The notes beneath the pieces were generated by a model. The model ran no database searches. It was not told the DNA's origin and worked only from the letters and a program-made list of their open reading frames with translations. From assembly GCA_944363735.1 (NCBI GenBank), contig CALVVB010000063.1, positions 11,296 to 75,295 on the forward strand: DNA of 64,000 bases. Direction: 5' to 3'. Source of the stretch: an uncultured Bacilli bacterium. GTDB taxonomy: Bacteria; Bacillota_I; Bacilli_A; RF39; UBA660. A program made the position numbers and the translations under genes. Positions 14,675 to 31,068 of the stretch are shown in pieces; within the stretch, counting starts at the first letter, position 1, and every line of letters begins with the position of its first letter.

Positions 14675-16439
14675 TTTCTTCCTCCTCATGCAAGACATTA
14701 TAAAGGTTAGTTGCAACAGTATCTCCTACTATTTCACTTAACTCCTCTACACTTGCTTCTTTCATTTTTTTCATAGAGCCAAATTTTTTAAGCAGTTCTT
14801 TACGTCTAACTTCTCCTATTCCCGGAACTAAATCTAAATAACTTGATAGTAGTCCTTTACTTTTAATATTACGATGATAGGATATAGCAAAGCGATGGAC
14901 TTCTTCTTGAATTTTAGATAAGTAAAGAAATAAATTACTATCACTTTTAATATCTAATATTTTATAATTACTATCAATAACAGTATTAGTTCTATGGTGT
15001 GAATCTTTTTTAAGACCAATTATAGGTATTGATAAGTTTAAACTAGAAAGTATCTCTTTACAGACATTTACTTGAGTTTCTCCACCATCCATTACTATTA
15101 AATCAGGTAATACTTCATTATCCATAATAGCTTTAAAATATCTTCGATATAATACTTCTCTCATCGCACCCAAATCATCTTTAACATCTGTACTTATTTT
15201 ATATTTACGATAATCATTCTTTAAAGGTTCAAAATCGCGAAAGACAACCATTGCACCAACATAATAGGTTCCAAATAAATGAGAATTATCAAAGCTTTCC
15301 ATTCTTGAAACACTTTCTACTCCAAGAAGAGTTTTAAGTTCATTCAAAGCTTCAATCTTTTTATTATCATCTTTCTTAAGAGTTTCTAACTCTTCATTTA
15401 AAACTACTTTAGAGTTCTCTTCGGCTAGATCAACTAGCTTCTTTAACTCTCCTCTTTTTGGAACATTTACTTTTACTTTTAAGTATTCACTTAAAAGTTC
15501 TGAATTTAAAGTATCTGGTATTAATATTTCATGGGCAAGAATATTCTTTTCATAAAATTTAATGATATATTCTTCCATATCATCAACAACATTATCTAGA
15601 GTCTGTAGTGTTTCATGATGTCTACCAAAAAGTATTCCTTCTCTTATAAAGAATACAGTTATTGATAAGTAGTTATCTACTACAGTATAATTAAAGATAT
15701 CAAAGTTATAATTCTTCTTTAAATCTATCTTTTGCTTAGTTAAAGTTATATCTATATCAGTTAACATTTCTCTTAATTCAAGAGCTTTCTCATAATTTAA
15801 ACTATTACTTGCTTTTTCCATCTCTTTAGTAATTTTCTCTTTAATAAAACTGCTATTTCCTTTAAGAAAGCTAGTAATCTCATCTGTCATAGATTTAATA
15901 TTATCTTTATCTATGTCTTTAATACAGTAACCTAGACACTCATTTATATGATAATATAAGCACTCTTTCTTAGGTAGTTTTTCACATTTACGAAGTGGAT
16001 ATAGACGATTAATCATATTAACTGTTTTACGAGCAGCGGTTACATTAGGAAATGGTCCAAATAGTTTATGATCTTTCTTTTTTCTTTTGACATTTCTAAC
16101 TACTCTAAGTCTTGGATATTTTTCATTTGTTAGTTCGATGTATGGATAACTCTTATCATCTTTAAGTAAGATATTATATTTAGGATCATATTTTTTTATT
16201 AGGTTTATTTCAAGGATTAAACTCTCTAACTCACTATCAGTAACAATGTATTCAAAGTCATCTATATCTTGGACAAGCATCGCAGTTTTTCCAGTTACAT
16301 TACCACGGAAGTAACTACTAACACGTTTTTTTAAGTTTTTAGCTTTACCTACATAGATAATATAGCCATTTTTATCTTTCATTTGATAACTTCCAGGTAA
16401 TTCCGGAACTAGTTTTAATTTTTCCTTAAAGTCTTTCAT
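14661..16439 (-). CDS. uvrC: excinuclease ABC subunit C
   Basis: GIY-YIG N-terminus (GSYQMKDKNGYIIYVGKAKNLKKR) and C-terminal HhH. Start trimmed to MKDFKEK behind RBS aggtggtg. Confidence 0.95.
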   Translation of the reverse strand: MKDFKEKLKLVPELPGSYQMKDKNGYIIYVGKAKNLKKRVSSYFRGNVTGKTAMLVQDIDDFEYIVTDSELESLILEINLIKKYDPKYNILLKDDKSYPYIELTNEKYPRLRVVRNVKRKKKDHKLFGPFPNVTAARKTVNMINRLYPLRKCEKLPKKECLYYHINECLGYCIKDIDKDNIKSMTDEITSFLKGNSSFIKEKITKEMEKASNSLNYEKALELREMLTDIDITLTKQKIDLKKNYNFDIFNYTVVDNYLSITVFFIREGILFGRHHETLQTLDNVVDDMEEYIIKFYEKNILAHEILIPDTLNSELLSEYLKVKVNVPKRGELKKLVDLAEENSKVVLNEELETLKKDDNKKIEALNELKTLLGVESVSRMESFDNSHLFGTYYVGAMVVFRDFEPLKNDYRKYKISTDVKDDLGAMREVLYRRYFKAIMDNEVLPDLIVMDGGETQVNVCKEILSSLNLSIPIIGLKKDSHHRTNTVIDSNYKILDIKSDSNLFLYLSKIQEEVHRFAISYHRNIKSKGLLSSYLDLVPGIGEVRRKELLKKFGSMKKMKEASVEELSEIVGDTVATNLYNVLHEEEENENK

Positions 16440-16535
16440 AAACATCACCACCTAACTAAAAAAATAAGTTATTTTACATAACTTATTTTAGACTACATTC
16501 ATTATTTTTACAAGACTTAATAAACTATAACTCAC

Positions 16536-17441
16536 CTACATTAACATTGTTATTTGACTTTTAGAAAGACCTGTCGCTTTAACTATATCTTTTATAGGCA
16601 TACCTATTTTAAGAAGATTTTTAGCGATAGATTTTTTCTCATTACTAGCACCTTGTTCAATGCCTATCTTAACTCCTTTTTCTTCAGCAGTATTTATTTT
16701 AGTATTCTCTATTCTTCTTCTTTCCTCTTCTTCATCATATAAACCTATTGTATTAATGTCATAAGTTAAATTTTTTAGTTCATTTGTAACTTCCATTAAC
16801 TCTTCATCTCCTTTCGCTATCTTCTCTATTTCACTAATCTCCTTTAGTGTTAATATTAATAACTCTTTCTCTAATTTATTTAAGGTTAAGCCTCTTTTAT
16901 ACTTTTCTCTTATTAGTTTTAAATTAATATAAAACTTTCCCCATTTATCACTTTCTATTATTCCATACTTATCTCTTGATTTAAATTCTAAAAGATTCTC
17001 TCCACTTAAGAAACAATAAAAGTTATTTATATTTATCTGTATTACTTTAGGTAACTTATTATAACTATCTGTCTTTCTTAATAAATCATTTTTTATCTTA
17101 CCTAAATAAGCATCATTACGTTCAATTAATCCATCCCATTTTCTCCCATTAAACTTATAATTAATAACATAGCCATCTATATCAAAAAGAACATCTGATA
17201 CTTTCCCTTTTTCTAAAGCATTATCTATTTTATATTCTGTATTTTTCTCTTGATAAGTATTTAGTATCAACTCTTTAGGTATACCTGTTATTCTAGAGGT
17301 TAAATCTGCCCTAAACTTAGGGCATTTATCCATAATTGCTTTAAAAACACCATCATAGGTTGCAGGTACTATCTCTTTCTTTTTATCTAATTCTTTTTTT
17401 ATTTGTTCAAATCTTTGTTGTGTTATAGCCAATAGACTCAC
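16536..17441 (-). CDS. Rpn-family recombination-promoting nuclease/putative transposase (PD-(D/E)xK)
   Basis: Length, the N-terminal D..FK.IM pattern and a C-terminal helical repeat region resemble YhgA/Rpn proteins (from memory). A TTGACA-N17-TACATT promoter lies upstream. Confidence 0.55.
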   Translation of the reverse strand: MSLLAITQQRFEQIKKELDKKKEIVPATYDGVFKAIMDKCPKFRADLTSRITGIPKELILNTYQEKNTEYKIDNALEKGKVSDVLFDIDGYVINYKFNGRKWDGLIERNDAYLGKIKNDLLRKTDSYNKLPKVIQININNFYCFLSGENLLEFKSRDKYGIIESDKWGKFYINLKLIREKYKRGLTLNKLEKELLILTLKEISEIEKIAKGDEELMEVTNELKNLTYDINTIGLYDEEEERRRIENTKINTAEEKGVKIGIEQGASNEKKSIAKNLLKIGMPIKDIVKATGLSKSQITMLM

Positions 17442-17695
17442 CCCCTACAACAGTTTTAACATAAGTTTTAACCTGTTCCAAAAGGATAATTTTGTAAATT
17501 GACTCTAGAAACATGAGGAAATTTAACAGATTCGTTATGTGAAAATGGAAAATTAAGCTAAAAAAGTAACATCAATTAACAAAATTCATATAAAATTAAC
17601 TTTTTTATAACCTCCTTTTCTCCATCTTTTTTAATAAGTCTCCCATTTATTTATAATGTATCATAATAGATAATTCATGTCAATGATTACTTTTC

Positions 17696-18637
17696 TTATT
17701 TGAAACAATATTTTATATTCTTCTTCAGTAATATTCTCCTAGTCTTACTAACAATTCTTCTCTTAATTTTATTATTCTTAACCTTATAATTAATACCTAG
17801 AAAAGTAAAACCTTCAGTACTTCTATATATTTTAGTTTTATTATTAAATTCTAATAGATATTCTCTTTTTATAATAGATTCTAATATTCTTAAAATATCT
17901 TTTAGTCTTTCTTTATTACTATCTAAAATAATACCATCGTCCATATATCTAATATAGTATTTATAATCTAACTTTTCTTTAATAAAGTGATCTAAGTCAT
18001 TAAGGTAAAACACTGCAAGAAACTGAGATGTATAGTTACCTATTGGAAGTCCTGTATCTTTCTTATAGAAAGTATCCATACCTAATCTTTCAATATTATT
18101 ATTTATATAATCATAATTAGTAGTATTTAATATTTCTTTAATTAATAATAAATCTTCATTACTTAGATATTTACTTAATTTATTAAGTAATACTTTATGA
18201 TTAATATTATAAAAGTATTTACTAAAATCAAATTTAAGGATATAAAAAGTACTAGATTTATTTTTAATTTTAATAAGATATTTATCTAACAAATATCTTG
18301 CATAAGAAGTGTCTTTACCTACTCTAGTAGCACAGTTACTATCTATTAAGTATTTATCTAAAGGTAATAGAACTTTCTTACAGATGATATGATTAACTAT
18401 CTTATCTTCTAGGGTACTACTCATAATAAGTCTTTTCTTTTTCTCTGTTATTGTAAAGATATGATAATTATTATAAGTATAGTTACCACTATTAATTTTA
18501 TCTACTAAGATATTACAATTACTATAATAATTCTTTTCAAAAAGATATAATTTCTTCTTATTTCTAATAGATTTTCTTATCTTTAAATAAGCATCTTCTA
18601 TATCACTTAACTCTACTTTCACTTTTAATCCATCCAT
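17696..18637 (-). CDS. DGR reverse transcriptase
   Basis: Catalytic YMDDGII and LPIGNYTSQ (the IGxxxSQ motif characteristic of DGR RTs). About 313 aa. Adjacent to the TR/VR repeats. Confidence 0.9.
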   Translation of the reverse strand: MDGLKVKVELSDIEDAYLKIRKSIRNKKKLYLFEKNYYSNCNILVDKINSGNYTYNNYHIFTITEKKKRLIMSSTLEDKIVNHIICKKVLLPLDKYLIDSNCATRVGKDTSYARYLLDKYLIKIKNKSSTFYILKFDFSKYFYNINHKVLLNKLSKYLSNEDLLLIKEILNTTNYDYINNNIERLGMDTFYKKDTGLPIGNYTSQFLAVFYLNDLDHFIKEKLDYKYYIRYMDDGIILDSNKERLKDILRILESIIKREYLLEFNNKTKIYRSTEGFTFLGINYKVKNNKIKRRIVSKTRRILLKKNIKYCFK

Positions 18638-18947
18638 ATATTAATTTAGTAATAGTAATATATTTCTTACTTATAGATATATACTTATCTTTAGATATTT
18701 CTTTATAAGTATATAGTTTATAATAGTAATAATCTAATAATTTAACTTCTATTAACATTTTTCTTTGAATATAAATTCTTTTAGATCTTTCTAATGTATT
18801 AGTATAATATAAATAATAAAGTAATTTATAATTAGAATCTATTATATTATTCTTGAGCGTTTTATATTTATTATTTATATTAAGAATTATTTTATCAGTA
18901 ATAATATCTATTTCTTTAAGTTTATTTTCTAAAACAAAGTTACTCAT
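18603..18947 (-). CDS. avd: Avd-like accessory variability determinant (four-helix-bundle candidate)
   Basis: 114 aa, basic, helical-looking, immediately upstream of and overlapping the RT gene. No motif-level proof. Confidence 0.55.
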   Translation of the reverse strand: MSNFVLENKLKEIDIITDKIILNINNKYKTLKNNIIDSNYKLLYYLYYTNTLERSKRIYIQRKMLIEVKLLDYYYYKLYTYKEISKDKYISISKKYITITKLIYGWIKSESRVK

Positions 18948-19278
18948 AGAACTTCTCCATTTTTGTTATAATTTCTTCAATATTATCTAGATATAAACAA
19001 TTCTTTAAATTAGTAGATAGTTTATCTATTCTATAAGACAACTTACCATACTCTACATATTTAGAATATTTATTATCTTTAAAGGTAACAACATCATCAT
19101 AGAAATAGTTAATATGACATTTATTTAATAGAGATATTATTTTATTAAGAGAATTTCTTTCTATATAAAATGTTTCTCTATAAGGTTTATCTAATAAATA
19201 ACTAATAATATAACTATCATTTTTAGTTACATAAATCATTAGTCCTTTACGCATAAAATATACCAAACTATCATTCAT
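18940..19278 (-). CDS. hypothetical protein, first gene of the DGR accessory operon
   Basis: 112-aa ORF with RBS aggagag, overlapping the avd-like start by 8 nt. No recognisable family. Confidence 0.55.
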   Translation of the reverse strand: MNDSLVYFMRKGLMIYVTKNDSYIISYLLDKPYRETFYIERNSLNKIISLLNKCHINYFYDDVVTFKDNKYSKYVEYGKLSYRIDKLSTNLKNCLYLDNIEEIITKMEKFYE

Positions 19279-19306
19279 ATATTTATCACTCTCCTATCTT
19301 TCACTT

Positions 19307-19336
19307 ATTTTACAAAAAAAAAAAAAAAAACGTCAA
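19307..19336 (-). promoter_or_regulatory. sigma-A-like promoter TTGACG-(T17 G)-TAAAAT for the orf112-avd-RT operon
   Basis: Minus strand reads TTGACG tttttttttttttttttg TAAAAT, about 25 nt upstream of the RBS and ATG at 19278. The 18-nt spacer is almost entirely a T17 homopolymer. Confidence 0.6.
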
Positions 19337-19349
19337 GCGATTTTGACGT
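19314..19349 (-). terminator. intrinsic terminator ending the target-gene/TR transcript
   Basis: Minus strand reads acgtcaa-aatcgc-ttgacgt (7-bp stem) followed by a T-run. The T17 tract is 19314-19330. Confidence 0.7.
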
Positions 19350-19528
19350 AAAAATTAGGACTAACCTTTCCTTTATTTTTATAGGGTCAGATAGTGTATA
19401 AATAGTTTCATAAATATTTACAATTCTATTATCTATCTAGTCTTTAGTGTTATTAACACAAGGAAATTACCTGTTCCTTTTATCTATTCTATATAGACTT
19501 ATCTATAATGCTAGGTTTAAAAGGAAAT

Positions 19529-19613
19529 GCCGCACACTGTTCGTGTTCGAAGGACTATTGTTGTTCGTGTTACCAGTGTTGTTGACGTTACGCACGTTAG
19601 ACGTACTGTTGGT
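19529..19613 (-). repeat. DGR template repeat (TR)
   Basis: In the VR frame the minus strand reads aac agt acg tct aac gtg cgt aac gtc aac aac act ggt aac acg aac aac aat agt cct tcg aac acg aac agt gtg cgg c (10 AAC codons). It lies in a non-coding position and is homologous to two segments of the upstream gene. Confidence 0.85.
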
Positions 19614-19665
19614 AATTCCCTACTATAATTTATTTAATCTAATTAATTATAGCCTAACTTAATTA

Positions 19666-19703
19666 GTCAGGAATCTAGGAAATACATTCCCTAGATTCCT
19701 GAC
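19666..19703 (-). promoter_or_regulatory. perfect 14-bp-stem hairpin 2 nt after the target stop codon
   Basis: gtcaggaatctagg / cctagattcctgac with a 10-nt loop and no U-tract. Confidence 0.6.
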
Positions 19704-19705
19704 AC

Positions 19706-21580
19706 CTAACTACCTAGAGAAAGAACAAACGGATCGGATTTAGTACCTGTTCCTGAGGTTATCTCGACGTTAGATTTTAGATTTATTGATGGCCGCACAC
19801 CGTACAGGCGCGAAGGACTATTGCTGCTCGTGTCACCAGTGTAGCCGACGTAACGCACGTTAAACGAAGAGTATGGTGTTAAGGTCCAATAAGATGTTGT
19901 TAAACCTGTACTAGTACTTCCTCCTTTAACTGAATATCTTTCAAATTGTCCTGACATCAATTCTCCCATTCGTAGTAATCCTACTTTAGCATCTGTAGTA
20001 GATGAAGTTAAACTACTCATATTGTTGTCTGTATACTTGGCTAGTTTATATGAAGTACCACTTCCTACTGTTCCTAAATACCATGTTGTACTATCTTCTA
20101 TCATTGAACTATAACTACTACCCACGTAATTTGTTAGATAATTTCCATTTAAGAATGTACCTATTGTATTGGTACTTGAAAATGTTGTATTACTTCCAAA
20201 GGCGCTTGTTATAAACGTATCAGAATTCTTTAACGGTTCGGCACTTACTATCTTTGTACCTGTTCCATTTTCATGGCTTACTATTCTATATAGATTATTT
20301 TCGCCACTTCCAAATCTTATATATTCTCCACTATATCTACTTGAAAGTAGTGTTCCCGTGAGGTCTGTATCATTATCTCCATTCAAGCGATAAGGGTTAT
20401 CTGCTGTACCATAGCCATCTACAATTTTAACGCTGGATTTTAGATTTATTGATGGCCGCACACCGTACAGGCTCGAAGGAATATCGTAGTTCGTGTGACC
20501 AGAGTAGGTGACGTTACGTACGTAAGACGCACTGTATGGCGTTAAAGTCCACCAATAAAGTCCATTATTTAAATAACCATTACTATACGTTGTTTCATGA
20601 TAACTAGATTGATATTCATACATATTTAGTAAACCTACTGGTGCTGTTACAGTTGCCTCCCCATTTGGTCTTGTTATACTTCCTAAACTAGTTGCATCAA
20701 GTGTTGCATCCCATACTGCATCTGTTACAATGAACTTCTCATAATCTCTTAAGTTACCAAGAAAGCCATCTACTGTTGTATCATTGAGCCAATCTTCCAT
20801 ATAACTTCCTTCAAAAGCTGTATTACCACTTGCATTATATGTAGTTGCACTTATATTCCATTGTGTTACTAACTTAACTGTCTTTGCTTCATTATTTACA
20901 GATACTGCTCTCCAAAGTTTTCCACTATACCATATATAGTTATTAGGATCTTCTCCTGTTATGAAGGTATCAACTCCATCATCATATTGATTTTCCTTTG
21001 GTATATTATTAAGTAGAGCATTAGATACTGTAACGCCTTGTTCTCTATCATAACTTGTTACTACTATCTTACTCTTATATTCTTTACCTTGTGCACTATT
21101 ATCAGCATTATAATCTAACCACATCCATAATTGATATGTTACTTTATCACTTGGTTTTAATGTCGCTTCACTAGTTATATCAAATGAACCTGTTCCATAA
21201 CCACTAACCTTTACTACTCCACTATCATATCCATTATCTCCTGTTAGCCTCATCTTTAAATAAGAATTTGGTAAGGTATTATTAACATCTTCTTCTAATG
21301 ATACATGATAATATGCATTTATATTACCTGTATTAGTTATAGTAAAAGTATAAGGTGTAGTCTTTTGACCTTGTGCATCTGTCATAGGTGCTACATTATC
21401 TAAATTAATATTATTTCCTTCAGCAAAATCAACTTTTAATATCCCTGCTGTTAAACTAACTTTTTTATCTCCTTCTAAAGTCATTGTAAGTAAAGCATAA
21501 CTTGCCCCTGCTAAAACTATAACACTTATTACAATCGTTACTATTACTAATGCAATATATTTTTTTCTTGATTTATCCAT
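19706..21580 (-). CDS. DGR target protein, membrane-anchored, with two tandem VR-bearing modules
   Basis: N-terminal TM segment (YIALVIVTIVISVIVLAGA). Two modules end in ...WWTLTPYS..(VR)..LYGVRPSINLKS, and each contains a TR-homologous segment. Confidence 0.85.
   Translation of the reverse strand: MDKSRKKYIALVIVTIVISVIVLAGASYALLTMTLEGDKKVSLTAGILKVDFAEGNNINLDNVAPMTDAQGQKTTPYTFTITNTGNINAYYHVSLEEDVNNTLPNSYLKMRLTGDNGYDSGVVKVSGYGTGSFDITSEATLKPSDKVTYQLWMWLDYNADNSAQGKEYKSKIVVTSYDREQGVTVSNALLNNIPKENQYDDGVDTFITGEDPNNYIWYSGKLWRAVSVNNEAKTVKLVTQWNISATTYNASGNTAFEGSYMEDWLNDTTVDGFLGNLRDYEKFIVTDAVWDATLDATSLGSITRPNGEATVTAPVGLLNMYEYQSSYHETTYSNGYLNNGLYWWTLTPYSASYVRNVTYSGHTNYDIPSSLYGVRPSINLKSSVKIVDGYGTADNPYRLNGDNDTDLTGTLLSSRYSGEYIRFGSGENNLYRIVSHENGTGTKIVSAEPLKNSDTFITSAFGSNTTFSSTNTIGTFLNGNYLTNYVGSSYSSMIEDSTTWYLGTVGSGTSYKLAKYTDNNMSSLTSSTTDAKVGLLRMGELMSGQFERYSVKGGSTSTGLTTSYWTLTPYSSFNVRYVGYTGDTSSNSPSRLYGVRPSINLKSNVEITSGTGTKSDPFVLSLGS
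19792..19876 (-). repeat. variable repeat VR1 (C-terminal module)
   Basis: Aligns to TR over about 82 nt. By hand alignment, 15 of 18 mismatches fall at TR adenines on the coding strand. Encodes YSSFNVRYVGYTGDTSSNSPSRLYGVR. Confidence 0.85.
20455..20539 (-). repeat. variable repeat VR2 (internal module)
   Basis: Aligns to TR over about 82 nt. By hand alignment, 13 of 16 mismatches fall at TR adenines. Encodes YSASYVRNVTYSGHTNYDIPSSLYGVR. Confidence 0.85.
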
Positions 21581-21583
21581 ATT

Positions 21584-21958
21584 TTACTCCCCATCCTTAG
21601 TTTCATAATTATCTTTATCACATACTAAATGTGCTTTATACAAATATTCTTTATCACTTATTTTCTCAACTTCTACATAACTTTTAGTTATATTACAATC
21701 ATTATTATTAATATCCTTTATTTTCTCAATATATTCTTCTATAACTAAAGCACTTAATAATACTCTAGTATTATGATCTATTTCTTTAGGCAAATAATTA
21801 TTATAATCTAAAAAATAATCTTTACTAGCTTTAATCATATCTTTTTCTAATTTATTATAGTATTCCAACTTATTAGAAGAAATTAATCTACTAACACTAT
21901 ATAATACTATTATTATTAATAAACCAAATATAATTATAATAGTTACTTTCTTACTCAT
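21584..21958 (-). CDS. membrane-anchored protein with a pilin-C-terminal-like domain
   Basis: N-terminal TM segment. The C-terminal pattern LV.EEYIE.I.D...DC....SYVEV......Y.Y.AHLVC parallels the orphan pilin at 14213-14674. Its stop lies 4 nt upstream of the DGR target start. Confidence 0.55.
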   Translation of the reverse strand: MSKKVTIIIIFGLLIIIVLYSVSRLISSNKLEYYNKLEKDMIKASKDYFLDYNNYLPKEIDHNTRVLLSALVIEEYIEKIKDINNNDCNITKSYVEVEKISDKEYLYKAHLVCDKDNYETKDGE

Positions 21959-22560
21959 TTTTTTCTTCTTTTACTTTTATTTATTGGTAATACTTTTTTT
22001 TCATCAAATTTAATTAATATAATAGATATAGTTGATTCTATTAATATTGTAACAAAATATGTTCTCCAAAAAGCATCTACTATAATCATTCTACTTATAA
22101 AGAGCATACTTATTAAGTTATCTACTAACATTGCAAATATATATGTTGCAAGTATCATTAGTTTATTACCATCTGTATTCATATATAGATAATAATAAAT
22201 AGTTAGGTTAATCATCTGACTTGCAAGATATCCAAAAATCTCTCCTGTTATAGGAATATAATCAATATCTCTTTGTCCTAGTAAAGATGCTACTATCATA
22301 AAAAGCAACATTAAACATGCTGAATAACTTATAGCATTCATAGTTTCTTTATAACCAAACTTTTTAGTTATAATATTTGCAACAAAATATCTAAATGGAT
22401 AAGCAAAGATTGCAAAAGTTAAACTAGCTTTACCTATATTAAAATCAAACTTACCTAATACCCATCCTAGTATGGCTATTGCTGTTAACAATAATATATA
22501 TATCCAGCTTGACACTTCTTCATGTTTAATTACTGCTTTTCTAGCACTTCCCCTCGTCAT
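21955..22560 (-). CDS. VUT-family (YhhQ/DUF165) queuosine-precursor transporter
   Basis: Polytopic protein with FAYPFRYFVANIITKKFGYK resembling YhhQ (from memory). Confidence 0.6.
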   Translation of the reverse strand: MTRGSARKAVIKHEEVSSWIYILLLTAIAILGWVLGKFDFNIGKASLTFAIFAYPFRYFVANIITKKFGYKETMNAISYSACLMLLFMIVASLLGQRDIDYIPITGEIFGYLASQMINLTIYYYLYMNTDGNKLMILATYIFAMLVDNLISMLFISRMIIVDAFWRTYFVTILIESTISIILIKFDEKKVLPINKSKRRKK

Positions 22561-22587
22561 ATTAACTCCTCCTATTCTTTATCATTA

Positions 22588-22628
22588 CTATAACACAAAA
22601 AAAAGAAAAGAGAAAGCCTTTCTTTTCT
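22588..22628 (-). terminator. intrinsic terminator after the lipoprotein gene
   Basis: Minus strand reads gaaaagaaagg/ctttctcttttc (bulged stem) followed by T8. Confidence 0.55.
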
Positions 22629-22630
22629 TT

Positions 22631-23086
22631 TTATTTACAAGTAAAACCGTCAGCTTCTGCTTCTTTTTTAGTATCTTCGTATGTAGCTTTTTCATCAGCG
22701 ATATCATCTAAACCATATTCTGCTAAAGCATCATCACTTGCTTTTGTTAAATCAATTTCTAATGAGACATTATAAGTATGTTTATCTTTATTATTATTAG
22801 TTTTTAAACTAACACCATCTTTTTCTGTCTCTTCAAATTGTGAATCTAACATAGATACAAACATATCCCAGTTATCAATAATAGTATCATCAGTCGCTTC
22901 ATTATCAATGCTCATTTTAACATAAGTAACTTTATCATCTTTGAAAGTCATAGTTACTTCTTGATCCATCTTCATGCCACTATTCTCTTCACTATTTGTA
23001 CAAGTTAGTGTCTTTTCTCCACCACAACCTGTCATCAATAGTAATGAACCTGCTAAAATAGCAAATAATTTTACTCCTCTCACCAT
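22631..23086 (-). CDS. lipoprotein, unknown function
   Basis: Signal peptide with lipobox LLMTGC. Confidence 0.7.
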   Translation of the reverse strand: MVRGVKLFAILAGSLLLMTGCGGEKTLTCTNSEENSGMKMDQEVTMTFKDDKVTYVKMSIDNEATDDTIIDNWDMFVSMLDSQFEETEKDGVSLKTNNNKDKHTYNVSLEIDLTKASDDALAEYGLDDIADEKATYEDTKKEAEADGFTCK

Positions 23087-28591: not shown

Positions 28592-28915
28592 TTAAGAAGA
28601 TACCGCTTCATTTAACATCTCAAAGAAAGCATTCATTCCTTTATTAAAAATATCTCCTATAAACTCTGATAAATCCAGCCCTAGGTCTGATACTTTATTA
28701 TCATAATTAACTTTATCTTTATTGAGATAATCTTTTATAGTTACATCCTTTCCGGCTGCTATGTCTTCCTCATATTCTTTTATTTGTTCTTCTGTTAACA
28801 TATTCTCTCTATTTTTAGTATATTCATTATAACCTGATGTTTGCATAAAGTATAAAATAAAGAAAAGAAATACTAATATTAAAACTATAAGTCTAGCAAG
28901 ATTAGTTTTGGTCAC
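28592..28915 (-). CDS. small membrane protein in the yqxA position
   Basis: 107 aa with one TM segment. Lies between spoIIP and lepA, as yqxA does in Bacillus. Assigned by synteny only. Confidence 0.45.
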   Translation of the reverse strand: MTKTNLARLIVLILVFLFFILYFMQTSGYNEYTKNRENMLTEEQIKEYEEDIAAGKDVTIKDYLNKDKVNYDNKVSDLGLDLSEFIGDIFNKGMNAFFEMLNEAVSS

Positions 28916-29879
28916 TTTTTATCACCTCTGTTAGAACATCGCTTAAAATAAGAAGCGTCTCATATACTTCATCAATCGTATTCTCTGGTCCCCCTACTTC
29001 TATTAAAATTGTCCTGTTAGAAAAATCTTGATTATAAACACCATTTACACCCTCTCCTTCCTTTTCATATATTCCTTTAGAAAGTCCTGGTACTTTAGTA
29101 TTTACTAATTCACTTATTTTTGTACTAAAATCCAAATTTCCCACGTAATTAGGATTTTCTAATCCTACTAAAAACATTACTTTAGCATAATTCTTATCAT
29201 TATAAGTTAAAGTTGTTTTATCATGAGATAGAGAGTCTCTATGTAAATCTATAAAATAGATTAAGCTAGGATACTTTTCTTTTGCTTGTTCCATTAAAGA
29301 TCTACTAGCCTGATAACTCCCTGCATAATTCAGTCCTAAACTACTTCTAATACTACTAATAGATTGTTCTTCAATTATAACGCTAAAACCATTATCTTCT
29401 AACTTCTCTTTTAAGACATAATCAGATAGTTTTACAGTTGGCATAACACTGTATTCTGCAAAGGATGATGGTTTATATTCTTCTGTATCATGAGAATTAT
29501 ATAGATATATTGTTGGTTCAACTTCTTTTATAACATCTTCATTACTTACTTTTTTAATATCTTTATTATCTACATCTATCTTTTTAGTTAAACCTTTAAA
29601 ATTAGTATCAAGTATAGAAAGAGGATCAGTTAAATCTAAATCTATTAATTTTGTCATAATCTTATGAAAATAACTATAGTTAGATTTACTATTAACAATA
29701 AAATGATTATTGTTTTCTATTAAGAAAGTTACTAAATCACTATTTTGATAAGGTAAATTATATTTAGATAAAGTTTTAATTGTTATGATAAATGAAGAAA
29801 AAATCATAATAAATAATAGTATGATTTTAGGTTTTATTTTTTTAGATTTTTTATTTTTTGATATAAACTTTTTCTTCAT
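28902..29879 (-). CDS. spoIIP: stage II sporulation protein P
   Basis: IYLYNSHDTEEY and IDLHRD motifs, with gpr-spoIIP synteny. Confidence 0.8.
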   Translation of the reverse strand: MKKKFISKNKKSKKIKPKIILLFIMIFSSFIITIKTLSKYNLPYQNSDLVTFLIENNNHFIVNSKSNYSYFHKIMTKLIDLDLTDPLSILDTNFKGLTKKIDVDNKDIKKVSNEDVIKEVEPTIYLYNSHDTEEYKPSSFAEYSVMPTVKLSDYVLKEKLEDNGFSVIIEEQSISSIRSSLGLNYAGSYQASRSLMEQAKEKYPSLIYFIDLHRDSLSHDKTTLTYNDKNYAKVMFLVGLENPNYVGNLDFSTKISELVNTKVPGLSKGIYEKEGEGVNGVYNQDFSNRTILIEVGGPENTIDEVYETLLILSDVLTEVIKSDQN

Positions 29880-29932
29880 AAAAATTCTCCTTTATTACAT
29901 AGTAATAAAAGAGTTATTAAAATTATGTCGAA

Positions 29933-30949
29933 TTAATTTAATTCTAAACTTTTATTTAAAGCTTTCGATAAAAGAAGACTTAACTTTTCTATAACAAAGT
30001 CTACTTCTTTAGGGGTTACTAATAGATTATATCCTAAAGGTGTTAAAACCTCTGTAATTAATGTCTTGATTTCATCTTCTGATAGATTACCAATTAAGCC
30101 CATTACTTCTTCTCGTTCTTCCTTATTTAAAGTCTTATCATGACTTTTATAATCTCTATTAATTTGAGGAACTAGTTTTAATTTATTATTATTAATATTT
30201 TCTTTTTCATAAGAGAAATGTCTAAACATATAATTGATTGTATTACTAACTATGGTCGTTGCATCTACTACTGTTGGTATACCTATGGCAATTACAGGAA
30301 GCCCTAGTGTTTCCTTACTAATTTCAAAACGATTATTTAAAAGACCACTACCAGGATAAATGCCAGTATCAGTTATTTGAATTGTTTTATTAATACGATC
30401 AAGACTTGAAGCAGCAAGGGCATCTATTACTATTAAAAAATCTGGTTTAGTTTTTTCTATTACTCCTTCTATTATCTCTTTAGTTTCAATTCCTGTTGTT
30501 CCCATAACCCCTGGTATTAGGGAAGATATTACCCTATATTTAGAATCTAATGGTAGCCCTAACTCTACTATTTGTCTTGTTATTTTGATAGAATCAACTG
30601 TTAGAGGTCCTAGAGCATCAGGAGTTGCTTTTCTATTACCAAGACCTACAATTAAACAGCTGTAACTATCTTTAATATTAATACTCTTTAATAAATCTTT
30701 TAAAGCTTTAATAGTTGCGCTTAATAAATTATTAAAATTAGCCTCATCTGTAACATCCTCAAAATAAATAGTCTTATAAACTCCTTTTTTTTTAGATATA
30801 AGTTTAGCAGAATCTTTATCTAAGGTGATAGTTTCTACTTTAATATCTTTATATTGTTCCTCATGTTTTTCATATTCTTTAAAATTATTAAGATGTTCAA
30901 CTATTAAGTCTGTTCTAATTTTATATTTACTTAAATCTATTTCATGCAT
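29933..30949 (-). CDS. gpr: GPR germination protease
   Basis: Starts RTDLIVE, with GLGN and IDALAA regions. Lies next to a divergent rpsT, as in Bacillus. Start trimmed to MHEID. Confidence 0.85.
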   Translation of the reverse strand: MHEIDLSKYKIRTDLIVEHLNNFKEYEKHEEQYKDIKVETITLDKDSAKLISKKKGVYKTIYFEDVTDEANFNNLLSATIKALKDLLKSINIKDSYSCLIVGLGNRKATPDALGPLTVDSIKITRQIVELGLPLDSKYRVISSLIPGVMGTTGIETKEIIEGVIEKTKPDFLIVIDALAASSLDRINKTIQITDTGIYPGSGLLNNRFEISKETLGLPVIAIGIPTVVDATTIVSNTINYMFRHFSYEKENINNNKLKLVPQINRDYKSHDKTLNKEEREEVMGLIGNLSEDEIKTLITEVLTPLGYNLLVTPKEVDFVIEKLSLLLSKALNKSLELN

Positions 30950-31068
30950 TAAAAACACTACCTTTCATATTTTCTCTTTTTATATTATTAACAAAAAGTA
31001 CAAAAATATTTGCAAAATATACTATTATTTGGTAAAATTAGATTGTTTACAAAAAGTGAGGTGAAAAC

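Follow-up and report, generated by a model that had tools for sequence, protein, structure and literature searches.

The window analysed here is a 64,000 nt stretch of contig CALVVB010000063.1 from an uncultured Bacilli bacterium (assembly GCA_944363735.1), with a mean G+C content of ~25%. We conclude with high confidence that it contains a complete, chromosomal diversity-generating retroelement (DGR) of the Avd + Msl type, carried by AT-rich gut Bacilli related to Candidatus Onthousia. The locus has a template repeat (TR), two variable repeats (VR1 and VR2) in one target gene, a DGR-type reverse transcriptase (RT), and the accessory genes avd and msl. The mismatches between repeats are biased towards TR adenines, the codons of the TR are arranged to suit such changes, the TR is accompanied by covarying RNA structure and a terminator, the enzyme genes are under purifying selection, and the cassette is conserved in many species. 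An initial annotation of the window had proposed a complete DGR, and the TR, both VRs, the DGR-type RT, Avd and the adenine bias are all present.

A three-copy repeat with adenine-biased differences

All parts of the DGR are encoded on the minus strand (Table 1). The three mutually homologous GC-rich patches picked out by the initial annotation were recovered at the same coordinates as an ungapped three-copy repeat, with a G+C content of 48% in the TR against a background of ~25%. The reading frames also agreed with the earlier description: the first patch, the TR, is non-coding, and one and the same ORF contains the other two, both in frame 0. Over 85 nt aligned without gaps, the TR differs from VR1 at 18 positions, 14 of them TR adenines (Fisher p = 4e-5), and from VR2 at 20, including 16 TR adenines (Fisher p = 4e-6). 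Taking both VRs together, TR adenines account for 30 of 38 mismatches. The first three bases of the TR (19611-19613) are part of an arm of a TR-flanking duplex and were probably never copied; when they are dropped, the remaining 82 nt core gives 28 of 34, the same count that had been reached earlier by hand alignment. The repeats share a GC-rich 3′ end, GTGTGCGGC, immediately after which the TR and the VRs diverge, and both VRs go on past this shared end with a common stretch of ~25 nt beginning CATCAATAAATCTAAAATC. In DGRs, one-way transfer depends on an IMH at the 3′ end of the VR as opposed to the IMH* of the TR. No further VR was found in the window.

Read in the frame of the VRs, the TR gives TNSTSNVRNVNNTGNTNNNSPSNTNSVR, with 10 AAC codons, as first noted, and one AAT. 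The 29 adenines of the core occupy codon positions 1 and 2 only, no stop codon is reachable by adenine changes in the TR, and the computed number of variants is ~1.4e17 peptides per VR.

The RT had been recognized by its YMDD motif and by IGNYTSQ, an instance of the IGxxxSQ signature of DGR RTs. Both are present in the translation, and profile and structure-relative matches are likewise of the DGR type. The protein matches Pfam RVT_1 (2e-20) and phrog_1423 (5e-70). Its best relative among solved structures is the 328 aa ‘Reverse transcriptase’ of 8ub7 (8ub7-8ube; E = 1e-18), aligned through GIPIGSLTSQ and YMDD; from that GIPIGSLTSQ sequence we take it to be bRT of Bordetella phage BPP-1, which has been studied by cryo-EM (bioRxiv 10.1101/2023.10.23.563531).

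We identified 80 relatives of the RT in GTDB genomes, the closest of which (74-94% identical) come from gut metagenome-assembled genomes (MAGs) labelled Candidatus Onthousia, uncultured Bacilli or ‘Tenericutes’. In nine close relatives (RT identity 73-92%), a single target gene holds two VRs, the one TR is located ~900 nt upstream of the RT gene, and msl and avd are present. The values of dN/dS were 0.11-0.18 for the RT gene, 0.09-0.25 for avd and 0.08-0.28 for msl. In loci L015, L016, L017 and L021, the mismatches at TR adenines were 13/13, 10/10, 17/18, 15/15 and 13/13, and these near-pure patterns indicate that the family does carry out adenine mutagenesis.

Table 1. Components and signals of the DGR, in the order of transcription (window coordinates unless a related locus is named)
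Feature	Coordinates	Strand	Description
Target (variable protein) gene	19706-21580	-	624 aa; N-terminal anchor, beta-sandwich, two tandem DUF6273 modules
VR1	20455-20539	-	aa 348-376, internal; C-terminal end of first DUF6273 module
VR2	19792-19876	-	aa 569-597, near C-terminus; end of second DUF6273 module
Hairpin after target stop codon	19667-19704	-	14 bp, no U-tract; read from sequence
TATAAT (-10-like) box	19646-19651	-	~35 nt upstream of TR; no clear -35
5′ arm of TR-bracketing duplex	19611-19621	-	AGGGAATTACC; overlaps first TR bases; pairs with GGTAATTTCCT
TR	19529-19613	-	85 nt, non-coding/intergenic; presumed copied core 19529-19610 (82 nt)
Structured spacer RNA	19345-19528	-	~180 nt, immediately 3′ of TR
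3′ arm of TR-bracketing duplex	19461-19471	-	GGTAATTTCCT; within downstream spacer
Intrinsic-terminator hairpin	19331-19349	-	ends TR RNA; 3′ arm TTGACG
T17 homopolymer	19314-19330	-	terminator U-tract, between TR-RNA terminator hairpin and msl
TAAAAT (-10-like) box	19307-19312	-	just past T17
msl (orf112 of the initial annotation)	18940-19278	-	112 aa; divergent MutS-domain-I-like DGR accessory protein
avd	18603-18947	-	114 aa; overlaps both msl and RT gene
RT gene	17696-18637	-	313 aa; DGR-type; IGNYTSQ and YMDD
Third ORF, L033	7318-7950		avd-RT gap
Third ORF, L051	7330-7977		avd-RT gap
Third ORF, L053	7327-7977		avd-RT gap
Third ORF, L054	4750-5409		avd-RT gap
Third ORF, L055	7328-7954		avd-RT gap
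Third ORF, L060	4424-5083		avd-RT gap

Accessory proteins and gene order

The ORF preceding the RT gene, earlier described as Avd-sized, is Avd according to family-level Pfam matches. The window protein scored by itself gave weak matches, to Pfam bAvd over its full length (E = 0.009) and to the PHROG ‘Avd protein of DGR’ (E = 2e-5). Iterated hidden Markov model (HMM) searches gathered a family of 39 members, comprising the window protein and 38 ORFs at the same position in related loci; 21 of the 28 members scanned match bAvd, the best at 1e-14. The family profile found only a weak match in the PDB, the ‘uncharacterized protein’ 2rld (E = 0.18). The assignment rests on the Pfam matches of family members.

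The product of orf112, which had been named as part of the element and left unexplained, is a divergent Msl: an accessory protein that is already known, and not a new gene. This assignment is based on family Pfam matches, a PDB profile search, the annotation of homologues and a fold search. By itself the window protein has no match in the Pfam, NCBIfam or PHROG libraries. The family obtained by iterated HMM search comprises 26 ORFs, always located between the TR and avd, and three distant members reach Pfam MutS_I with 28-35 bits (cut-off 20.6). Searched against the PDB, the family profile has MutS for all of its top 12 matches, over domain I (E = 0.004), and a database search yielded 1074 homologues, most of the small ones carrying PF01624. 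In an AlphaFold2 (AF2) model with a predicted local distance difference test score (pLDDT) of 71 (80-88 for residues 11-60), residues 1-57 superpose on MutS domain I at 1.6 Å, and the top Foldseek matches are all MutS, with weak E-values of 0.06. The protein is not a bona fide MutS mismatch sensor, for which a Phe-x-Glu mismatch-binding motif (GDFYE) and ATPase domains would be expected: it consists of domain I without ATPase domains, and the G-x-F-Y motif of the family is without the Glu of GDFYE. The subfamily of the window is N-terminally shorter, with G-L-M-I-Y where most members have G-x-F-Y.

Msl was introduced by Wu et al. 2018 (PMC5758913) as a protein of 112-283 aa that always occurs with avd, in an MSL-containing ‘Architecture D’. 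It is also encoded by the Bacteroides DGRs Bfr, Bth and Bun, and in Bacteroides MutS reduces DGR mutagenesis 5-10-fold (bioRxiv 10.1101/2024.11.15.621889). In the window, the host mutL gene is located ~3 kb from the DGR.

The position of a short TR of ~85 nt upstream of the accessory genes, which had been singled out as peculiar, is indeed the arrangement found, and is the norm for the clade: it recurs in ~40 related gut-Bacilli loci in which a TR could be called upstream of the RT gene, all with 0-3 small ORFs in between (mostly 1-3). The rule in the wider clade is target-TR-[avd, msl-avd, or msl-avd-ORF of ~210 aa]-RT. A Clostridia subgroup (L074-L078) is the only one with the TR directly before the RT gene and a VR downstream. 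The order TR-msl-avd-RT is also seen in L065 (Clostridium sp. CAG:628, from GenBank). In a subgroup of the related DGRs, a third conserved ORF of 208-219 aa is found between avd and the RT gene. It has no significant Pfam match, the sub-threshold matches being to membrane-protein families over the N-terminal ~60 residues (E 0.03-0.07), and may represent a further accessory gene.

RNA and DNA signals around the template repeat

Several conserved signals surround the TR. Upstream, the TATAAT box GGCTATAAT is invariant in 13 of 13 aligned relatives and may serve as the promoter from which a separate TR RNA starts. A 4 nt duplication (TAAT) directly after this box (19641-19651) is found in the window and close strains only, and other relatives lack it. 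The hairpin that follows the target stop codon retains its stem in the relatives L003, L015, L021 and L058, where the changes in it are fully compensatory. It probably acts at the RNA level, as an end or stability element dividing the target mRNA from the TR RNA. A role as a BPP-1-type cruciform for target recognition was set aside, because the hairpin lies 87 nt from VR2 and has no counterpart at VR1, yet both VRs have been changed at adenines.

The TR is bracketed by a duplex of 11 bp. Pairing reaches 95.8% across 13 sequences and two pairs show compensatory changes, whereas slid controls gave 37-67%. Arms of the form AGGG-N7-9, close to the 5′ end of the TR, and N7-9-UCCU, downstream, pair and co-vary in nine distant loci. 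A similar anatomy is known from the RNA of the Bordetella phage DGR, which is structured 3′ of the TR and in which an upstream/downstream duplex (‘cPRT Stop’) limits cDNA synthesis (bioRxiv 10.1101/2023.10.23.563531). By analogy, the 5′ arm of the duplex in the window would mark the 5′ limit of the copied region.

The spacer that follows the TR is more conserved than the TR itself, with 83% column identity across species, and it is nearly unchanged in L085, the TR of which differs by 27% from that of the window. A covariance model of the spacer (R1), built from 15 close sequences, found matches in distant loci with RT identities of 40-46%, eight of which start no more than 4 nt from the 3′ end of the TR. 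In the alignment fitted by the model, pairing extends to 95% of cells, against 41-48% in slid controls, and double changes occur in 42 of 48 pairs. An Rfam scan of the locus found no family, the only match being a sub-threshold chance hit to the SodC thermometer (28.9 bits against 125). Pairing of ACAC in the spacer with the 3′ end of the TR was considered as a priming duplex and rejected, because relatives with an altered TR 3′ end show no corresponding alteration of the spacer. The intrinsic terminator is the sole terminator-like site within 5.3 kb (17400-22700), and its hairpin is kept in relatives despite their differing sequence.

A hypervariable T-tract upstream of msl

The T17 tract behind the terminator hairpin is the longest homopolymer in the window, the next longest being 9 nt. 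Among relatives and same-species strains (L003-L021 and L084-L093), lengths of 7, 8, 9, 10, 13, 14, 16-20, 22, at least 27, 41, 42 and 76 nt were observed, and several contigs end inside the tract. The TTGACG of the terminator (-35-like) and a conserved TAnnnT (TAAAAT in the window) flank the tract in a promoter-like arrangement with a spacing of 18 nt in the window, at a fixed distance to the ribosome-binding site of msl.

This arrangement leads us to speculate that the T-tract is a slipped-strand switch, in which a spacing of ~16-18 nt would turn on expression of msl-avd-RT and other lengths would turn it off. We offer the idea as a tentative one that is probably wrong; the T-tract could simply be a slippage-prone terminator tail. 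No relation was visible across relatives between the length of the tract and the cleanness of the adenine mismatches. The literature searched contained no link between DGR control and a homopolymer switch, and a possible on/off switch is the one feature of the locus that could be new. If the idea is right, targeted hypermutation would itself be phase-variable in the population, which would explain the many lineages that look frozen. At the position of the T-tract in L012, between the spacer terminator and msl, three tandem tyrosine-recombinase genes (‘recombinase in trio’-like) are inserted (L012 4204-7178).

The target protein

The N-terminus of the target protein is positively charged and is followed by one hydrophobic helix (aa 3-23 in the AF2 model). 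A beta-sandwich at approximately aa 45-180 is the sole confident part of that model. Pfam DUF6273 is matched in two stretches with 37.2 bits (cut-off 23.5), VR1 lying at the C-terminal end of the domain, and in each DUF6273 module YGVRPSINLKS comes directly after the VR. DUF6273 has been described as a C-type-lectin-like target domain of DGRs in gut phages, with the VR at its C-terminal end (PMC10743442, PMC11792537). The target has more than 3000 homologues, of which the best 120 are full-length, 60-86% identical and mostly singleton 90% clusters. Its PHROG matches include a Hoc-like head decoration protein, and a profile search of the PDB found no sequence relative.

Recent activity in the strain lineage

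VRs were compared between strains on assembled contigs. The TR is identical in L084 and L087, and their VRs differ from those of the window at four and two positions. Between strains, the VRs differ at a density ~9 times that of the background, and TR-adenine positions account for 7 of the 10 differences, against an expected ~35%.

Several observations weigh against our reading of the locus. Of the 34 core mismatches, six do not fall at TR adenines, and one of these, a C to T change at 19543, is common to both VRs. Scored alone, the Avd and Msl proteins of the window fall below the curated Pfam and NCBIfam cut-offs, and the full-length AF2 model, with a pLDDT of 48.6, is too poor to bear out a C-type-lectin fold of the VR modules. 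Strain pairs that are 0.3-0.9% apart overall differ at only 1-4 VR positions, with no rewritten VR, and the amino-acid sequences of the VRs are identical in five of six near-identical strains from other samples. The VR heterogeneity that the initial annotation had named as a check thus gives a weak signal in this strain lineage: the differences are dense and favour TR adenines, yet the VR peptides are identical in most strains. Because near-identical strains have almost unchanged VRs and six core mismatches are non-adenine, recent activity looks low, and it appears that this lineage either seldom undergoes homing or purges most of the homing products.

These data led us to consider that the cassette is intact and silent or decaying in this lineage, with the VRs being frozen alleles that evolve by point mutation and recombination. 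Some of the non-adenine mismatches are private to the window strain, as at position 20519 of VR1, where the window has A while L084 and L087 have the G of the TR, a point mutation of the window strain. Loci L003, L005 and L013 also have 20-50% non-adenine mismatches, and the spacing of the -35-like and -10-like elements upstream of msl is set by the variable T-tract. Against silence stand the intact RT, avd and msl genes with their low dN/dS, the enrichment of VR differences at TR adenines between strains that share an identical TR, and the clean adenine-only patterns of the sister lineages. On balance, we regard a silent cassette as possible and unlikely, and favour a complete DGR with little recent homing.

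Comparison of the same-species strains L085 and L086 with window positions 16400-22600 revealed a mosaic. Divergence is 0-1% in the vut, orf124, avd and rpn genes but 12-44% in the 3′ half of the target gene, the two VRs, the TR and msl; in the RT gene it is 5% for L085 and 0.3% for L086. This pattern points to recombinational swapping of a module made up of the 3′ half of the target gene, the TR and msl.

Chromosomal context and mobility

The DGR is flanked by housekeeping genes, namely uvrC, mutL, miaA, a glycosyltransferase gene, lepA, a D-Ala-D-Ala carboxypeptidase gene, spoIIP and gpr, and this context recurs in contigs from several samples. The RT matches 126 GenBank phage records at identities of no more than 35%, among them Faecalibacterium and Bacteroides phages and the DGR phages of Bordetella, nd12 and ANMV-1, and it has no close viral relative, the best identity being 38% in IMG/VR and 35% in GenBank phages. 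The original description of the element as chromosomal, with no phage genes nearby, is upheld by the housekeeping flanks and by the lack of a close RT in viral collections.

In other species, the cassette occupies different genomic contexts, and three MAGs have two copies on separate contigs (L004/L008, L009/L012 and L021/L030); taken together, these observations indicate that the cassette has moved or been duplicated over time. Such mobility would be compatible with a DGR located on a prophage, or on a mobile element of another kind, whose target is a phage receptor-binding protein; so would the Hoc-like match of the target and the fact that gut phages are the best-known source of DUF6273 targets (PMC10743442, PMC11792537). 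We consider this very improbable, given the housekeeping flanks shared by several samples, the distance of the RT from its viral relatives and the N-terminal membrane anchor on the target, all of which favour a cellular, chromosomal DGR.

Downstream of the RT gene lies a gene for a PD-(D/E)XK Rpn-type nuclease or putative transposase (16536-17441, minus strand; PDDEXK_2, HTH_Rpn_C). An Rpn-type gene is also found downstream of the RT gene in L001, L002, L004-L008, L012, L019 and L030, with identities of 30-77% where the RT is ~90% identical. Judged from sequence, a link of this gene to mobility or recombination of the cassette is possible. On the other side of the element, two mutually overlapping genes abut the target gene (21584-22560, minus strand), one for a 201 aa VUT-family-like membrane protein (below the Pfam cut-off) and one for a 124 aa protein with a hydrophobic N-terminus. 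Their overlap and their abutment on the target gene suggest that the three form one operon, and neither gene adjoins the target in other species. Further away, spoIIP and the germination protease gene gpr (28902-30958) indicate that this lineage of ~25% G+C, often recorded as ‘Tenericutes’ in MAG records, carries sporulation genes.

Relation between the repeats and the reverse transcriptase

It could be argued that the repeats and the RT gene are neighbours by chance. VR1 and VR2 with their flanks form a 122 nt duplication (83% identity) within tandem DUF6273 modules, as expected if the repeats were a mere product of domain duplication and gene conversion, with an unrelated RT gene alongside. 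The third copy is non-coding, however, and nearly all of its differences from the two VRs are at its own adenines, whereas the mismatches between VR1 and VR2 have no base bias; the arrangement of TR, two VRs and RT, with lineage-specific TRs, also recurs in many species. The adenine bias effectively refutes gene conversion, which we find scarcely credible as an explanation.

Equally hard to sustain is the proposal that the RT is of a different prokaryotic class (group II intron, retron, or abortive infection/defence-associated RT (Abi/DRT)) beside coincidental repeats: the RT does match NCBIfam models of the group II intron RT/maturase (TIGR04416), Drt3a and the retron St85 RT, but far under their curated cut-offs (89 against 300, 53.5 against 200 and 44 against 235, respectively), it is only 313 aa long and lacks a maturase or endonuclease part, among solved structures the 8ub7 RT is its best relative, it has IGxxxSQ, an Rfam scan of the locus found no intron or msr/msd RNA family, and an adenine-biased TR/VR pair lies beside the RT in about half of its 80 genomic relatives, most of the others being contigs cut near the RT.

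Proposed mechanism and relation to known systems

By analogy with the BPP-1 and Bacteroides DGRs, we infer the following scheme of where the transcript begins and ends, how the cDNA is primed and homes, and what Msl does. An RNA of ~320 nt would comprise a short leader, the 85 nt TR, the ~180 nt structured spacer and the intrinsic terminator, and would start either from its own TATAAT box or by read-through from, or processing of, the target transcript. The 11 bp duplex between leader and spacer would bracket the TR. A complex of RT and Avd would bind this leader-TR-spacer RNA and prime within the spacer, and the RT would copy the TR into cDNA up to the bracketing duplex, misincorporating opposite the 29 template adenines. 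The cDNA could then replace VR1 or VR2 through the shared GC-rich 3′ end and flanking homology, re-randomizing up to 18 codons at the tip of each DUF6273 module, with ~1e17 stop-free variants per VR. Msl would probably bind the mismatch-dense cDNA:VR heteroduplex, or compete with MutS, and so shield the heteroduplex from host MutS/MutL repair.

The window DGR is a member of the already described Avd + Msl type, its target domain is likewise of a known kind, and nothing here alters what a DGR is. It adds a well-resolved cellular example of that type from a little-known, uncultured lineage of gut Bacilli of ~25% G+C with sporulation genes, and it is of interest mostly for the anatomy of its RNA, for a target with two VRs and for the T-tract of variable length. 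The covariation-backed anatomy of duplex, spacer and own terminator, drawn from ~40 related loci, extends the RNA elements seen by cryo-EM in Bordetella to Bacillota and supplies defined constructs for reconstitution. With one TR serving two VRs in tandem lectin-like modules of one surface-anchored protein, two binding sites would be diversified combinatorially. As Msl is conserved in a host with MutL, the locus is also suited to asking whether Msl protects the heteroduplex from mismatch repair.

In gene content, the window DGR resembles the MSL-containing DGRs (Architecture D, PMC5758913, and Bfr/Bth/Bun): in both there is an RT, Avd and a small MutS-like protein with no HRDC gene, and in both a single TR in a cellular (non-phage) setting. 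Msl is 112 aa in the window, against 112-283 aa in the survey. The window Msl differs in being divergent and N-terminally shortened, with G-L-M-I-Y, and by itself misses Pfam MutS_I; the window target is a two-VR DUF6273 protein and not a pilus tip.

With BPP-1 (mtd-avd-TR-brt), the window DGR shares the adenine-specific flow from TR to VR, an AAC-rich TR, an RT with IGxxxSQ and YMDD, and Avd. A structured RNA 3′ of the TR and a TR-flanking duplex are also common to both, comparable with the Sp region and ‘cPRT Stop’ (bioRxiv 10.1101/2023.10.23.563531). Unlike BPP-1, the window DGR is chromosomal, has its TR before avd and not between avd and the RT gene, and includes the extra gene msl. Its TR RNA has its own terminator, apart from the enzyme genes, and its two VRs lie in one gene. 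The TR is 85 nt long in the window and 134 nt in BPP-1, and the RTs are ~30% identical.

The gut-phage DGRs that diversify DUF6273 proteins, such as the tentaclins and Mtd-like proteins of nd4/nd12 (PMC10743442) and those of Faecalibacterium prophages (PMC11792537), likewise have the VR at the C-terminal end of DUF6273, a target that combines an Ig-like beta-sandwich with DUF6273, and one TR for two VRs; the RT of phage nd12 is ~34% identical to that of the window. The phages have each of the two VRs in a gene of its own, whereas in the window, with no phage genes near the DGR, they occupy tandem modules of one membrane-anchored cellular protein.

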